Shown here piece after piece: positions 7,691 through 62,217 of a stretch of DNA of 64,000 nt. Within the stretch, counting starts at the first letter, position 1. Every line of letters begins with the position of its first letter. The notes beneath the pieces were generated by a model. That model searched no databases. It saw nothing but the letters and a program-made list of their open reading frames with translations, and was not told the origin of the DNA. A program made the translations under genes and the position numbers. Source of the stretch: Halichondria panicea (Eukaryota). The DNA lies in contig NC_087378.1 of the NCBI RefSeq assembly GCF_963675165.1, positions 334,562 through 398,561 of the forward strand. The letters are read 5' to 3'.

Positions 7691-10600
7691 GAGCAACAAT
7701 ACGTCCAGGCTGGTTGGGCCCCCGCCCATCCCGTGGTGCACATGGAGTATGCAGGCTTTGCTGGAGGTCATCCCCCACCTTTCACAAGTCCTCCGGCAAC
7801 CCCCATGACCCCTATGACTCCTGTGACCCCTCACCACGCTTTTCCAATGCCTCAGTACGACTTGCCCAACCATTACAACAGGTACTGTGTACACGCACAC
7901 ACGTTGCTTACTGGTCCATCACAAACAAGGTCCCTTATGCTAACACCGTCTCTTATGCTAACACCGTGCTTGATGACGCACACAACAACTACTTAACTGG
8001 TGGGTGTGGCTTGTTTACTACTTGTAAAGTTCTGTCTGTAGGTTGTGGGAATGTAGTTGTTCTAGACATGCTCTAGTTCATCTGTGGACACTCCCTCCAC
8101 CAGACCTTGAGTACAAGGCCATATCTGGCAGCTATAGCTAGCTAGGACATAAATGTTTGGGTACTGTAGACCATACATGACAGGACTTGTGTGGGGGTTA
8201 TTTCGAGGTTGATTTGCTCAGAGGTCCCACATAGGCTGCTTTGGTTTTCTGGCTGCAAATTGACCTCAATATTGTTGTCTGGTGGTTAGCCTCCTGTAAC
8301 CAACACTTGTATGGCCTGTGGTCACCATGGCAGCAGCTCTCCTGGGGAGAGTAGTTATAATAATAATGTCTGTTAACTATTTGCTTTGCCCTCAGGCTAG
8401 GCAGTGTTGAGATTGCTAGCTTCCATTGCTTGTACAACTTTGGGAGCTGAGAAAGGACTGCCTTGTTATATACCTACATGTACATGTAAGGCTAGTGCTG
8501 TTGTTAGGTGGAGCGTTAAATGCTGGCAAATTGTGTGTCTGTGTTCTAAGTTGATTGATGTGCGGGTCACATGTCTTGTTTCATGTGGTGTCTTCAGAGG
8601 CAATCAAGTGGCAGTGTACAACTCAACACCCTTAACCAGTGTACCCCATTCACCCACTGTAATAGTGTTTGTACATATCCTTAGCATGTATGTCCATGCA
8701 TGGTGTACAGCCCTTTCTGGGAACTGGGGTAACTCGAGATGACTGCTGTGGTACATCACCACATCCCCCCCCCCACACACACACACACACACACACTTGC
8801 TCTGTCCTTGCTCTAGGGCCTACAGTGTACTGTGTAGTTAGTGATGCTATAGCTTTGTTGAAAGATGCTGTACATGTGCTATTATAGTCTGTGTTCATGA
8901 TATGCACCACTGTAGGGTTGCTTTCTAGTGTCTGAGAGCTGTGTAGACAGTTCTAGATACTAACACACTTGGTTGTCTCTACCAACATGTCCCCCAGCAT
9001 GATCTAGCTCACTAACTGTCTGTCTGTCTGTCTGTCTCTCTGGTTGCATGCTTCTCCCAGTGGGCAAGATCAGCCTACTCCTTTGGATGACAGCCAGGCC
9101 CACCTGCCAGCTAGCCACCATCACCACCATGATGTATAGGCCAGGGTCTAGCTGTAGCTGGGGCTGTAGCCAGAACATTACCTGTTTGTGTGAATGTTGG
9201 CTAGTACTCAAATATGACATCATGGTAATGGTACCCACGGGAAGTATTGGATATTTTCTGATAGAGATATTGAGTTTCATTCTCATACACATGTAGCAGC
9301 TGTATATAATCACCATAGTAATCGGTCATACTTGATATATGATATAACCTCCAGTTAACCAGAATTTTCCCACACATTCTTCCATTCCTTTACCGTCCCT
9401 CCCACCCCCACAGTCATCCTCCACCGCCCCCTCAATACACCCCGCCCCCAGACTACAGACTGTTTGCGCTGTGTCAGCACCTTTCCCAGAACGGGGCGGC
9501 CGGCGGACTCAAGGATAGGGACAGCAAGTTCTGGTGGGAGGAGTTTATGAACGAGTTCTTTCATGAGGCGGCCACTCTTGTCATAGAGGTGGATCTGGGG
9601 GAGGGAACACGGAAGTTCAGTGAGTCATAAACTTTCATTATGCATGGGGGGGCTATCTCAGCTCGATCTGTGCACCACACAAGTCCTAGGGTTCTGCGAC
9701 CACTATGGTTGATTGATGGACCCTTGTGGTTATAGTTAGTGAGGGAAAGTTCCAGGTAGACCCCCCTTCCCTCGTCATTGCCATGGTTATACCCTCACAG
9801 GACTGAGTAGGCAATGGATACCATTCTACTTCAAGAGCTTCTTTGAGAATGGAGTGACATCACTGCACCTGTGTCTGGGAGAGGGGAGCAGCACTTATCA
9901 TCAAGGCCTCTTAGAAATGGAGTTCAGGAATACTATCATGGAGACACATCACTCGTCCCCTCAGCCGACAAAGGTGGGTGTGGCTTGTTGTCGTGGTAGC
10001 ATGTGGTGGGGTCCCTATAGATGTACGAGTGTGCTGTAGTGATAGTGTTGGAAGCCATTGTTTGATTTTCAACACAAATCGGTGGTTGTTGATTTTAACA
10101 CATCAGAGCAGTAGCAAGATACACAGAGAGTGTTGGGTTATGTTAATGCATTGTCGTTTGCTTTGTCACTCCTCACACACACACACTCCCCCCTCCCTCA
10201 CACACACACACACACCACACACACAGGTGTGCACCAGTGGATCTCTTATAGTGGACTTTACACTGGAGGAGAAGCCACGAATCATCTCGTGGTATTTCCA
10301 CATCAATGATCACATGGAGTTCGTACCACGGAAGAACACGACTCATGTAAGTCATGTGATCATCTCTCTCCTCCATTACTACATACATGTCCCTGTAGGA
10401 GGAACCAACTGGTGTCCTTAGCAACATCACCTGCAGAGGTTTGCTCCCGGCTACACAGAAACTGCTCTTTGTAAGTCTTGCGACTAGTGTGTGTGTGTGT
10501 GTGTGTGTGTGTGTGTGTGTGTAGGTCATTTAACTTGTTCTGTCTTGGCTGTATGCAGGAGGTAGGGTTAATGGACTATCAGGAAACACCTCGGTCTGCA

Positions 10601-11431
10601 GGTATCAACTCCACCATCGCAGCAGGTACAGTGTATACACTAGTACTGTCTGCTGTGTATGTATACCGTACTGCAGTAGATCATCGATACTGTGTACTAT
10701 AACTTGTGGTCCCTCCCTCTAGTAACCTCGGGTTGTCAGTGGCCATCGTCACAACCTCCCCAGCTCATCTCGATGGGAGGAGACCAGTTCCAGATCACTA
10801 GTGAAGGTACTGTATAAGTGTGTGTGTGTGTGTGTGTGCGTGCGTGCGTGAGGTTTATTGACACTGTTTCATTCATTCGCACAGTTCCCGGGCAACCCGC
10901 TGCTCTGATGAATGGACATGTTCAAGCCGCCCCCACAGACTCTACCATTAAGTTGTCATGTAACAAAGTGACCTCGCCCATTGCCACACCCACTAGCATG
11001 ATGGTAGCCACTGAGGCAGTACTACTGGGAGACACCAGTGAGTATAGTGTACCAGTGTATATACAGAGTACCAGGAGTGAGTCAGATTAAGGATTGGTAG
11101 CCCATTAATTTTAATCATGCTAGGTTGAATGTGTGTACCCTAGTGTTTTTTTGCTAAACCTATCCTTGCATGCTAATTAACGTGTTATTATTTTTATAGT
11201 TGCTTTCTAGCTGTCATAATATACACGGTGTTTTTCACCCGCCCACTCAATGCAGCTGACATTCTGAGTCTATGTGTGGGCGGTGAGGAGCGTAGGATCA
11301 CAAAAGTGCACTGTCAGCAGAAACAAGTCCTCTGTTCACCACATCACAAGATGGACGCCCCCGTGTACTATAACCATAGCAACGTGGGCGCGTGGGGAGC
11401 ACATGTCAAGAGGGAGCAGCTCACTCAATGA
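7691..11431 (+). CDS. LDB: LIM domain-binding protein (LDB/CLIM/Chip) orthologue; multi-exon gene span
   Basis: Exons translate to HPPPPPQYTPPPDYRLFALCQHLSQNG...DSKFWWEEFMNEFFHEAATLVIEVDLGEGTRKF / RLSRQWIPFYFKSFFENGVTSLHLCLGEGSSTYHQGLLEMEFRNTIMETHH / VCTSGSLIVDFTLEEKPRIISWYFHINDHMEFVPRKNTTH. These align to human LDB1 DYRIFELNKRLQN...LWWDAFTTEFFEDDAMLTITF...PKRYTIGRTLIPRYFRSIFEGG.... A candidate LIM-interaction motif, MMVATEAVLLGDTSE, is near 10980-11030. Phase-consistent splice junctions were checked for the first three coding exons. The N-terminal Met is at 7742, or in an upstream exon. Confidence 0.8.
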
Positions 11432-11840
11432 ACACAATCAAAACATCCATCATTAAATTTTTATCTACACTATTCAAAACGCTTAATTGCAACTTTGGCT
11501 AATTTTTATGTGAGCTTTAATTGATTCTTAATTACCTCCTACAACGTGTTGTACGTGCCCCTTGTTAATCACACCGTGAAGTGGCTGTCATAATTATTAT
11601 TATTATTATTGATTATTAATTGTGTTGTGACGATATTGCTATAGCAACCTGTACCAATCAGTGTAGCATGTGAACAGAGAATATGGGAAATATTAGAATG
11701 GAATAAAACAGAATAATAATTATAGGCACAAAACATCTATAATAGTTTATACTATAATACATAGGAGTTCAAAGTTCATCTTCATATTGTAGTGTAGTAA
11801 GAGGACCGGAGGAGAGCCTGCTCTGGAGTCTGCAGGAGGT

Positions 11841-60922: not shown

Positions 60923-61029
60923 TTACTCGAGCTTCTAGAGCAGAACAACTCCTCCACCTTACATGTGGAATGACGTAGAATGACGTTGCTGCTGAGCTGG
61001 CAAATTTAACGCCCACGCAATAGCTCCAC
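60923..61029. promoter_or_regulatory. Very compact bidirectional promoter: 107 bp between divergent start codons of PI4K2 (-) and PSTK (+)
   Basis: The PI4K2 ATG is at 60920-60922 (minus) and the PSTK ATG at 61030-61032 (plus). The interval contains the direct repeat TGGAATGACGTAGAATGACGTTGC (a TGACGT CRE/ATF-like half-site appears twice at ~60973-60990). Confidence 0.55.
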
Positions 61030-62217
61030 ATGGCCACAAACAAGGTAAAGTACAAGACAGGTACATGCTTGTTGCTGCTGATTGGAATTCCTGGATGTGG
61101 AAAAACTACATTTTCAAGATTTTTGGCAGCTCATATGAGATCTGCAGCTCAGTTCCAATGGATTCCAGTAGTCGTTCATTTTGACGACTTTTATCCACCG
61201 GATCAGCGACAACACAACAAAAAATATGTAATTTGCATTCGTAATCATACAAAAATTAATTTTATTACCTCTTTGCAGGACAAGACACACTTTGTAATGA
61301 AGGATGCCCGTCTTAAAATTTTGACGTGCATTGAAAATTTTATCACTCTGAACAATTTAAGAGCTCCAACCGTTTCCAGTGAGTCCTCACAGTCTAGTCA
61401 GATTGCAGAGGCACCTCCATCAGCAGATAGCAGTACTGCAGATTGTTTTGAATTTGAATGGAGAATATTGATTGATTCCATTAGAGAACAGCTGATCCAT
61501 TCTCAAGTTAGAGTTGATAGAGATGGAAGGTATACGTTTGTGTTAATCTTATGCATGTGAGCTAATTGAATTACTGATTAGAATGATCTCTGAGGATTGC
61601 TCAAGAACAGTTGTTTTATTCCTGGATGACAATATGCCATTGAAGAGTATGAGATACGAATACTATCAACTTGCCAGAAAGTGTGAGTGCATAAAACCGC
61701 CTAATTTCACATGATTTGTGTTGAATGTTTCCTATAGACGGAATCGGGTTTGCTCAAGTTTGTGTGCAATGCTCCAGTGAAGTCGCTAAATTGCGGAATC
61801 TACATCGTCCATATCCAATACCTGATTCCACTATTGAGCACATGGAACGGAGTATGGAATATCCGGAACCAGACCAGAATCACTGGGAGAAACTGAGCAT
61901 CTGTATCAACAGTGATGGAGATATCACAATATTTACGCAAGAAGGATGGTATGTAAATTAATTGTCCTTAAAAACTGTATTTTCGGCTGATTTATACCAA
62001 ATTTATGTTGTCTCTCTCATGCAGTGGCAAGGTACTGCCTCTGATTGTGGAAGCACTGTGTACACCAGTGACACCACTGCCTCAACTAGATGCTGCATTA
62101 AGGGTAGGTATATGTATGCCTATATCATCAGGAGTGCATGAATCCTGCTATCATTGTGCAAGCCTTTGTCACGCATTTGTTGTACAAGAATATGTAAAAT
62201 TAGACTTAGATCAATAA
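61030..62217 (+). CDS. PSTK: L-seryl-tRNA(Sec) kinase (PSTK; selenocysteine biosynthesis) orthologue; ~5 exons
   Basis: The P-loop exon is MATNKVKYKTGTCLLLLIGIPGCGKTTFSRFLAAHM... (human PSTK ...GLCVLCGLPAAGKSTFARALAHRL). VVLFLDDNMPLKSMRYEYYQLARK matches LFLVLDDNFYYQSMRYEVYQLARKY. GFAQVCVQCSSEVAKLRN...PYPIPDSTIEHMERSMEYPEPDQNHWE matches GFCQLFLDCPLETCLQRN...PQALPPETIHLMGRKLEKPNPEKNAWE. Confidence 0.7.

Follow-up and report, generated by a model that had tools for sequence, protein, structure and literature searches.

Gene content of the window

The window, the 64-kb stretch of DNA from the demosponge Halichondria panicea analyzed here, holds 16 genes (Table 1), or about one gene per 4 kb. Introns within it are mostly 47-300 bp long and intergenic gaps span 90-1,600 bp, and it is because both are so short that this many genes fit into 64 kb. 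The first-pass annotation called this density unusually high; the dense packing is evident, but the corresponding Amphimedon locus is packed as tightly. Five gene models (NANOS, ENO4, CFAP58, DHX15 and PI4K2) agree letter for letter with H. panicea RefSeq proteins, and the exact matches for NANOS, ENO4, DHX15 and PI4K2 all reside on a single H. panicea record of 8,642,571 bp. This 8.6-Mb record is probably a chromosome. In addition, a contig from an independent assembly is identical to the window over 3,317 bp.

Table 1. Genes and regulatory region of the 64-kb window
Feature	Position	Strand	Basis
NEDD1 orthologue	42..4307	-	PDB matches: Xenopus NEDD1 108 bits, human NEDD1 103 bits
Single-pass membrane protein	4559..6806	+	gene model
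LDB (LIM-domain-binding protein)	7159..11431	+	LIM_bind; 5' and 3' ends of model uncertain
NCAPG (condensin I subunit CAP-G)	12729..18591	-	Cnd3 (E 2.7e-63) and HEAT repeats
Shootin-like gene (probable SHTN1 orthologue)	19289..23214	-	gene models; 3' end uncertain
NANOS	24030..24924	-	two exons, 233 aa; zf-nanos (E 2e-26); model = XP_064383773.1
ENO4 (enolase 4-like)	25240..28558	-	602 aa, 9 exons; model = XP_064383748.1 'enolase 4-like'
ENO4/CFAP58 divergent promoter region	28559..28716	.	158 bp between both start codons
CFAP58	28717..33203	+	881 aa, 16 exons; CFAP58_CC (E 2e-76)
Multi-propeller WD40 protein, probably WDR6/Trm734	33521..38502	-	WD40 families
DHX15/Prp43	39907..46620	+	737 aa, 13 exons; model = XP_064383733.1
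Predicted secreted protein	47145..49542	+	gene model; 255 aa
PH-domain protein with proline-rich tail	51181..52890	+	PH domain (E 1.2e-6)
Ig-domain single-pass membrane protein, repetitive Lys/Glu-rich tail	53434..56843	+	Ig_3, I-set
PI4K2 (type II phosphatidylinositol 4-kinase)	57045..60922	-	445 aa; model = XP_064382923.1
PSTK (phosphoseryl-tRNA[Sec] kinase)	61030..62217	+	KTI12; exon structure roughly resolved
PKS/FAS-like gene, 3' part, running past the window end	62306..64000	-	KAsynt_C_assoc

The nine genes that had been named between positions 7691 and 62217 (LDB, NCAPG, SHTN1-like, NANOS, ENO4, CFAP58, DHX15, PI4K2 and PSTK) are all present, eight of them supported by search tools and the SHTN1-like gene more weakly. 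That list was nevertheless incomplete, as four further genes lie in the same range, encoding the WDR6/Trm734-like, secreted, PH-domain and Ig-domain membrane proteins, and NEDD1 lies just outside it. The same annotation had singled out the orthology of SHTN1, ENO4 and PSTK as a point on which its proposal could fail. For PSTK the assignment holds, given that the eukaryotic model TIGR03575 (selen_PSTK_euk) matches with E 7e-35 as against 1e-12 for the archaeal-type TIGR03574; ENO4 also holds, and SHTN1 is probable only (see below).

Other assignments follow from differential matches. DHX15 scores 1281 bits against human DHX15 and 768 bits against DHX8, and PI4K2 scores 299 bits against PI4K2A and 258 bits against PI4K2B. 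The best PDB matches of LDB are LDB2 (109 bits) and LDB1 (99 bits), and, judged by its sequence, the one sponge LDB gene is the co-orthologue of both. The NCAPG model has no exact match in RefSeq, and neither the membrane protein at 4559..6806 nor the secreted protein at 47145..49542 belongs to a recognized family, as Pfam searches with both gave no match. PI4K2 and PSTK are arranged head to head, with 107 bp between their start codons. Tandem repeats occur in the intron preceding the last exon of NEDD1 (37/75 bp, positions 204-959), and a 60-bp repeat lies in the Ig-domain membrane protein gene (56580-56728). On contig L001, AMP-binding, ketoacyl-synt and PP-binding domains are encoded on the same strand as the PKS/FAS-like gene.

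A sponge neighborhood built around a divergent promoter

The shootin-like protein contains coiled coils together with a poly-proline tract and, in its C-terminal part, the motif 'MLSRIRSGNVHLKKV'; Pfam and PDB searches with it returned no match. Aligned with a presumed human SHTN1 sequence, the protein is collinear and scores 60.8 bits, whereas controls reach at most 25.8 bits. Homologues occupy the equivalent position in Amphimedon and in two presumed-sponge ENA contigs, L007 and L010. This collinearity and the gene neighborhood indicate that the gene is probably the SHTN1 orthologue. ENO4 shares about 25% identity with canonical enolases; its identity with the RefSeq protein and its matches to the Macrostomum 'Enolase 4' (123+67 bits, N-terminal extension included) uphold its assignment. 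On the other side of the promoter region, the H. panicea RefSeq CFAP58 protein (P0005), found at 99% identity in the search, threads exactly onto the window in 16 exons. Beyond it, the only specific named match of the WD40 protein apart from generic WD40-repeat regions is yeast TRM734 (51 bits over the C-terminal region), and the gene is probably WDR6/Trm734. A WD40 gene is equivalently placed in Amphimedon, L007 and L010.

The order and relative orientation of the entire SHTN-NANOS-ENO4, CFAP58, WD series are kept in Amphimedon, L007 and L010, such that four sponge or presumed-sponge genomes have SHTN, NANOS and ENO4 side by side, and a third presumed-sponge contig, L011, retains part of the block (CFAP58 divergent from ENO4-NANOS). 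CFAP58 has different neighbors in Exaiptasia, amphioxus and Lingula, as does ENO4 in Macrostomum, and, among the loci examined, the five-gene block is therefore whole only in those from sponges and presumed sponges. This is a truly constrained neighborhood, the core of which is the divergent ENO4/CFAP58 pair.

The region shared by these two genes is about 90-270 bp long across the loci. A motif scan of the ENO4/CFAP58 gap in the window finds X-box-like motifs at 28623 and 28645 (GGTACCATGGCAAC). Exact matches occur in the corresponding gap of Amphimedon, L007 (two) and L010 (two), and matches with one mismatch in the window and L011, against a background rate of 1.3e-4 per base over 288 kb; the pattern is degenerate and over-represented window-wide (12 matches versus 3.5 expected). 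In Exaiptasia and Lingula, too, CFAP58 is preceded by comparable motifs. Promoters of ciliary genes controlled by RFX through X-boxes are known in C. elegans, Drosophila and vertebrates, and the sponge candidate resembles them in being a 14-bp imperfect palindrome that matches RTHNYYWTRRNRAC and lies within about 100-150 bp of the start codons of a pair of flagellar genes. It differs in that, in sponges, one candidate motif region would be common to both genes of a divergent pair. An RFX-type factor may act on the ENO4/CFAP58 promoter through these motifs, and the shared promoter would place both flagellar genes under a single control region.

Linkage with human 10q24-q26 and 4p15

It had been proposed that the window preserves a pre-vertebrate linkage group behind the 10q/4p15 paralogon. 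We take human LDB1, PI4K2A, CFAP58, ENO4, SHTN1, NANOS1 and PSTK to lie in 10q24.2-q26.13, and NCAPG, DHX15, LDB2 and PI4K2B in 4p15. On these positions, nine of the 11 window genes with an identifiable human orthologue fall within the two regions, which we estimate to contain about 1.5-2% of human genes. The two that do not fit, WDR6-like and NEDD1, have counterparts on other human chromosomes (presumably 3p21.31 and 12q23) and are the only two, among NEDD1 and the four previously unlisted genes, for which a human counterpart is identifiable. That random sponge genes merely happen to match 10q and 4p15 might be entertained on the grounds that the sample is only 64 kb and that the earlier list held fitting genes only. 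However, on the 1.5-2% estimate the probability of such a co-location by chance is about 1e-14, so the co-location is real; moreover, LDB and PI4K2 match duplicate pairs divided between exactly these two human regions. With human positions as taken here, these two observations effectively refute chance co-location, which we regard as vanishingly improbable.

Because the organism is a sponge, the linkage predates vertebrates. The roughly equal scores of LDB against LDB1 and LDB2, and of PI4K2 against PI4K2A and PI4K2B, are expected of single genes that predate the vertebrate duplication, and the proposal of a pre-vertebrate linkage group is supported on both counts. The window is very probably an ordinary, very compact piece of a chromosome-like H. 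panicea record that shares an ancestral animal linkage group with human 10q24-q26 and 4p15. From nine of the 11 genes and the human positions given above, we infer descent from one such group. Its genes would have remained on one chromosome ever since the sponge-bilaterian ancestor, inter-chromosome translocations being rare and within-chromosome rearrangements being expected to scramble gene order; the 4p15 share would have arisen after two vertebrate genome duplications. The co-location is a known phenomenon rather than a new kind of finding: bilaterians, cnidarians and sponges have 29 linkage groups in common, within which gene order is largely scrambled and the member genes share no function (Simakov et al., 2022, PMC8809688).

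That published absence of common function also weighs against co-regulation or a common pathway, rather than passive retention, as what has held the nine genes together. The flagellar pair ENO4 and CFAP58, with an X-box-like motif in the divergent promoter in all five sponge or presumed-sponge loci, and the head-to-head PI4K2 and PSTK would fit such a clustering. Nonetheless, the functions represented are unrelated (condensing chromosomes, splicing, phosphorylating lipids, making selenocysteine, acting as a transcription cofactor, binding RNA in the germline and ciliary roles), and lineage-specific genes are interspersed among the nine. Functional clustering is thus very unlikely as a general account, and co-regulation plausibly explains one or two gene pairs only.

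Gene order beyond sponges and relation to known systems

The proximity of ENO4 and SHTN1 in human, noted in the first-pass annotation, is borne out by published positions on chromosome 10 (ENO4 3'UTR, chr10:116,884,159; SHTN1 intron, chr10:116,979,803), which are less than 100 kb apart. Its reading as conserved microsynteny is backed by the five sponge or presumed-sponge loci together with published bilaterian microsynteny blocks, each of which has to recur in two or more species from each of two or more bilaterian clades (Robert et al., 2022, PMC8851819). Block 3089 in Lingula joins SHTN1, listed there as KIAA1598 (its former name), to a pair of enolase-activity genes three to four genes away, and block 631 in Acanthaster places NANOS close to KIAA1598/SHTN1 (PMC8851819, supplementary file 4). 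SHTN1 is therefore linked with enolase-activity genes in one block and with NANOS in the other, as in the sponge. By contrast, the sponge trio is contiguous and joined to CFAP58 and the WD gene, and the other block members (NEURL, ANKRD53, ACTR1A, MGEA5 and KDM3B) are absent from the H. panicea window. Both blocks were labeled bilaterian novelties, that is, undetected outside Bilateria (PMC8851819); the sponge arrangement suggests that the SHTN1-enolase and SHTN1-NANOS linkages are older than Bilateria.

Less probably, the macrosynteny is real while the proximity of ENO4 and SHTN1 (and NANOS) arose independently in sponge and human, these genes of one linkage group having come to lie together at random in each. 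ENO4 and the SHTN-like gene point the same way in the sponge (both on the minus strand), whereas we take the human genes to be convergent, with NANOS1 about 2 Mb from SHTN1; the ENO4 and SHTN1 loci compared are those of sponges, presumed sponges and bilaterians other than amphioxus, and between phyla most of the gene order inside a linkage group has been lost (PMC8809688). Against independent origins stand the contiguity of the trio in four genomes, the recurrence of the SHTN1-enolase and SHTN1-NANOS blocks across bilaterian clades (PMC8851819) and a rough estimate that a given pair has a likelihood of less than 1% of being adjacent in a group of several hundred genes. We infer that the proximity in sponge and in human goes back to a common ancestor, and the shootin-nanos-enolase 4 neighborhood seems to have been retained in both.

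The vertebrate 4p/5q/8p/10q paralogon arose when the genome was duplicated twice. Its pairs LDB1/LDB2 and PI4K2A/PI4K2B, divided between 10q24 and 4p15, each have one sponge counterpart, LDB and PI4K2 respectively, and the others of the nine genes are retained on just one of these two segments; the window differs from the full paralogon in that none of its genes was recognized as a 5q or 8p member. The study defining metazoan ancestral linkage groups was conducted at chromosome scale, with H. panicea outside its five focal species (PMC8809688), whereas the present sample is 64 kb. As in those groups, functionally unrelated genes reside on one sponge chromosome while their orthologues are grouped on defined human segments, and overall order is lost, with human CFAP58 and PSTK 12-25 Mb from their sponge neighbors. 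Unlike a fully scrambled linkage group, however, the window contains several pairs with more local order in human: the counterparts of sponge-adjacent genes are presumably separated by about 1.3 Mb (LDB2-NCAPG), about 0.7 Mb (DHX15-PI4K2B) and under 0.1 Mb (ENO4-SHTN1).

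Gene models and identities

The window is animal DNA whose genes contain introns; (TG)n microsatellites are numerous, and no tRNA genes were found. Gene models built with a small exon-chaining script, together with model searches and alignments, place LDB, NCAPG, NANOS, ENO4, CFAP58, DHX15, PI4K2, PSTK and a probable SHTN1 where the first-pass annotation had put them, and add four genes within 7.7-62.2 kb that it had omitted (see table). The CFAP58 model is 99% identical to [quoted passage not shown], a RefSeq protein that threads exactly onto the window in 16 exons, and four further models are letter-for-letter H. 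panicea RefSeq proteins, all on one 8,642,571-bp record, which marks the source as the demosponge H. panicea. The exact RefSeq look-up returned no identical protein for two shootin variants, one NCAPG model and one PI4K2 variant. An assembly artefact or contamination is ruled out by a contig of an independent assembly (L001), which is identical to the window across 3,317 bp, and by the same arrangement in Amphimedon.

Features of the window and RefSeq proteins identical to its gene models
Feature	Position in window	Remarks
NEDD1	0.04-4.3 kb	
G-rich tandem repeat (37/75 bp, about 20 copies)	204-959	occupies the intron that precedes the final predicted exon of NEDD1 (149-42)
Palindromic X-box copies	6190, 17230, 36706	inside or next to genes without a known ciliary role
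Shootin-like gene	19289-23214 (-)	probable SHTN1
NANOS		XP_064383773.1; NCBI name "uncharacterized"
ENO4		XP_064383748.1, "enolase 4-like"
ENO4/CFAP58 gap	28559-28716	between divergent start codons
WD40 multi-propeller gene	33521-38502 (-)	yeast Trm734 (WDR6 counterpart) is the only specific named match outside the generic WD40-repeat region
DHX15		XP_064383733.1, PRP43/DHX15-type helicase
Tandem repeat in last DHX15 intron (48 bp, 8 copies)	46006-46407	starts at the end of the penultimate exon (46023); last exon 46503-46620
Secreted protein	47145-49542	no recognised family
PH-domain protein	51181-52890	
Ig-domain membrane protein	53434-56843	
PI4K2		XP_064382923.1, "phosphatidylinositol 4-kinase type 2-beta-like"
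PI4K2/PSTK gap	60923-61029	107 bp between head-to-head start codons
PKS/FAS-like gene	62306-64000	right end of window, directly after PSTK

Several of the identities follow directly from domain matches, as for NCAPG (Cnd3, E 2.7e-63), NANOS (zf-nanos, E 2e-26) and CFAP58 (CFAP58_CC, E 2e-76). LDB contains LIM_bind and matches LDB2 and LDB1 in the PDB at 109 and 99 bits, respectively; DHX15 scores 1281 bits against human DHX15 versus 768 bits against DHX8; and PI4K2 scores 299 bits against PI4K2A and 258 bits against PI4K2B, the PI4K2B entries being lysozyme-fusion constructs. PSTK is recognized by TIGR03575, which models the eukaryotic L-seryl-tRNA(Sec) kinase (121 bits, E 7e-35). This score is far above those of other models, including the archaeal-type TIGR03574 (48 bits) and Pfam KTI12 (28 bits); that it falls short of the curated cut-off (382) is unsurprising, the gene model being partial and joined by hand. 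The WD40 gene was also considered as WDR11 (10q26), a candidate rejected because its sole specific match outside the repeat region is Trm734/WDR6.

ENO4 has the enolase fold, an Enolase_C match and an N-terminal extension, and is 22-28% identical to canonical enolases. The whole model aligns with the Macrostomum "Enolase 4" (123 + 67 bits, including residues 31-122 of the extension), compared with 66-97 bits for bacterial enolases. An exhaustive search with a single ENO4 exon returned 51 relatives, mostly exon-size fragments of unannotated contigs. The ten of these that were checked by name include a bacterial enolase (E 3.7e-4), a contig protein labelled "enolase" and Enolase 4, the Macrostomum protein being the sole full-length named animal protein among the matches looked up; the locus L009, also among the matches, is bacterial and adds at least one more bacterial enolase to them. 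A word-indexed homologue search returned four prokaryote-type enolases. A divergent enolase that has this extension and is closest to a named enolase 4 probably belongs to the ENO4 family, and the assignments of both ENO4 and PSTK proposed at first pass are upheld, the former by the NCBI name and the Macrostomum match and the latter by the separation among kinase models. The region of the extension around residues 42-110 (ALEGLLNEMFLSDPRDVYGYMSDYF) resembles the N-terminus of enolases of 477-491 aa, among them PDB 7ugh (7ugh_A) and a transcript-derived protein (P0156), a likeness that may point to an older enolase class including ENO4.

Other features of the stretch concern individual genes. 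Owing to the repeat in the NEDD1 intron, long but spurious open reading frames appear on both strands, in several frames. In DHX15, the repeat unit includes the "DIKPEW" codons and a splice donor, so that donor sites which might be used alternatively stand in series; the RefSeq-identical model uses the first. The secreted, PH-domain and Ig-domain genes, which lack an identifiable human orthologue, are inserted between DHX15 and PI4K2, whose counterparts are presumably close neighbours on human 4p15.2. The head-to-head pair of PI4K2 and PSTK finds a curious parallel in human PI4K2B, whose presumed head-to-head partner is SEPSECS; that enzyme catalyses the step immediately following PSTK in the selenocysteine pathway. 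On L001, the large PKS/FAS-like gene (1620-7008) encodes AMP-binding, ketoacyl synthase and PP-binding domains; beyond it lie EFCAB10-like and HDNR-like genes.

The shootin-nanos-enolase 4 neighbourhood

The gene between NCAPG and NANOS, called SHTN1-like at first pass, is the least secure of the nine assignments, and no Pfam or PDB match was found for it. The predicted protein has coiled coils in its N-terminal part, a proline tract and motifs at its C-terminus, and aligns collinearly over ~300 residues with a hand-typed human SHTN1 sequence (60.8 bits, pairwise E 6e-14); a C-terminal motif matches separately. Controls comprising unrelated coiled-coil proteins and 200 shuffles reached at most 25.8 bits. 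In addition, its neighbours are NANOS and ENO4, with which shootin is also associated in the catalogued blocks of bilaterians. It is thus a probable, not a proven, orthologue of SHTN1. A literature search on shootin in sponges found nothing relevant.

In H. panicea, Amphimedon and two contigs of holobiont assemblies that resemble sponge DNA (L007 and L010), SHTN, NANOS and ENO4 lie on one strand, followed by CFAP58 on the opposite strand and then by the WD40 gene. A third such contig (L011) preserves this order in part, with CFAP58 divergent from ENO4 and NANOS. CFAP58 is tandemly duplicated in Amphimedon queenslandica (894 + 896 aa; 10001-19120 of the Amphimedon locus L002, GL345160.1) and single in H. 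panicea, L007 and L010. The neighbours of CFAP58 are unrelated in Exaiptasia, Branchiostoma floridae and Lingula, with no ENO4, NANOS or SHTN within 10 kb, and those of ENO4 are unrelated in Macrostomum; among the loci examined, the five-gene block is therefore whole only in sponges and presumed sponges.

Portions of the block can nevertheless be traced in bilaterians, where shootin is catalogued as KIAA1598, the former name of SHTN1. Two further genes of that catalogue, ACTR1A and MGEA5, presumably have their human counterparts at 10q24. In block 3089, KIAA1598 of Lingula resides three to four genes from two "phosphopyruvate hydratase activity" genes, and in block 631 of Acanthaster, KIAA1598 has two NANOS genes nearby, as well as ACTR1A and MGEA5; both blocks are labelled "Bilateria novel" (Robert et al., 2022; PMC8851819). 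With at least three orthologues together in several species of different clades, the arrangement qualifies as a microsyntenic block, and the first-pass view that the ENO4-SHTN1 adjacency, with NANOS in between, represents microsynteny is borne out by the sponge loci and by these two blocks. In sponges, shootin, nanos and enolase 4 directly adjoin one another. The simplest reading is that their neighbourhood predates Bilateria, and the bilaterian catalogue probably missed the sponge block because sponge shootin is so divergent. This suggests that at least one block dated to Bilateria in the catalogue, that of shootin with enolase 4 and nanos, existed already in the sponge-bilaterian ancestor. 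Such cases help to date the origin of regulatory neighbourhoods and to check how complete the scrambling of gene order in ancient linkage groups has been.

Human NANOS1 is presumed to lie about 2 Mb from SHTN1 and ENO4, and human SHTN1 to occupy the strand opposite to ENO4, forming a convergent pair in which the ENO4 3′ UTR faces SHTN1. Published coordinates place the human ENO4 3′ UTR <100 kb from an SHTN1 intron. Relative orientation is not conserved between the two lineages, all three genes being on one strand in sponges, and this difference would be accounted for if the proximity in sponge and human were a chance adjacency within one linkage group. Given the contiguity in several sponges and the linkage in the bilaterian blocks, this explanation is considered the less likely one, though its probability is not negligible. 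Conceivably, ENO4-NANOS-SHTN1 is instead an ancestral animal block kept from the sponge-bilaterian ancestor to humans, within a 60-kb segment that retains local neighbourhoods (LDB-NCAPG, DHX15...PI4K2 and ENO4-SHTN1) still about 0.1-2 Mb apart in human 4p15/10q25-q26; this proposal is put forward tentatively, at a little short of even confidence. If ancestral retention is correct, genes inside linkage groups have been reshuffled less than is generally assumed.

A candidate ciliary promoter between ENO4 and CFAP58

ENO4 and CFAP58 are both flagellar proteins, and their divergent start codons are 158 bp apart. A scan with a degenerate X-box pattern (RTHNYYWTRRNRAC) identified GGTACCATGGCAAC in this gap, one mismatch from the pattern, and an exact match, GTTGCTATGGTAAC, in the corresponding gap of Amphimedon. 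The L007 and L010 gaps contain two exact matches each, and the L011 gap contains a match with one mismatch. The Amphimedon, L007 and L010 gaps together span roughly 520 bp, for which the observed background frequency of the pattern predicts about 0.07 exact matches. The pattern is also enriched across the window as a whole (12 matches versus 3.5 expected from shuffles). In Exaiptasia and Lingula, outside sponges, X-box-like motifs precede CFAP58 at a distance of 80-140 bp.

An X-box motif near ciliary genes is hence conserved across species, and represents a putative RFX element. In sponges, a single RFX-type element may act on ENO4 and CFAP58 alike. Were the X-box shared in this way, separating the two genes would be costly, which offers a concrete, testable reason for their locking in sponges, as two flagellar genes with one X-box promoter. 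If so, this promoter would act as a sponge-specific lock on part of the five-gene block.

Linkage shared with human 10q and 4p15

The human orthologues of the nine genes originally named are taken to reside at 10q24.2-q26.13 and 4p15, those of the WD40 gene (WDR6) and NEDD1 presumably at 3p21.31 and 12q23.1. On standard human map positions, 10q24.2-q26.13 and 4p15 account for 9 of the 11 window genes that have a recognizable human counterpart. These regions hold an estimated 1.5-2% of human genes; on that estimate, the chance probability of such a result is about 1e-14, which rules out chance co-location and indicates that the linkage is real. The sponge order, LDB-NCAPG-SHTN-NANOS-ENO4-CFAP58-...-DHX15-...-PI4K2-PSTK, differs from that of both human segments, so that linkage appears to have been kept irrespective of gene order. 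Orthologues thus appear to be co-located in sponge and human, as judged from 64 kb of an 8.6-Mb record. In addition, LDB and PI4K2 are about equally similar, by alignment score, to both members of the corresponding vertebrate pair, as would be expected if each represents a single pre-duplication gene. The ancient 10q/4p15 linkage proposed at first pass is supported on both counts.

The window contains 16 genes in 64 kb, with introns of mostly 47-300 bp and intergenic gaps of 88-1,638 bp, and the proposed compression of the linkage into 64 kb reflects the compactness of the stretch; the Amphimedon locus is packed as tightly.

Bilaterians, cnidarians and sponges have 29 linkage groups in common (Simakov et al., 2022; PMC8809688), and any window would be expected to look like this where its sponge chromosome still matches one of these groups. 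The macrosynteny seen here is an instance of that well-described phenomenon, one more sponge example of a documented rule, and changes nothing about it. The local result is modest, and what is new comprises the five-gene block in several sponges, the candidate shared ciliary promoter and the older dating of the neighbourhood. Compared with the vertebrate 10q24/4p15 paralogon, the LDB and PI4K2 genes of the window fit the duplicated human pairs. Compared with the expectation of scrambled order within linkage groups, the window departs from it, because SHTN-NANOS-ENO4, the divergent CFAP58 and the WD40 gene have been kept together in several sponges.
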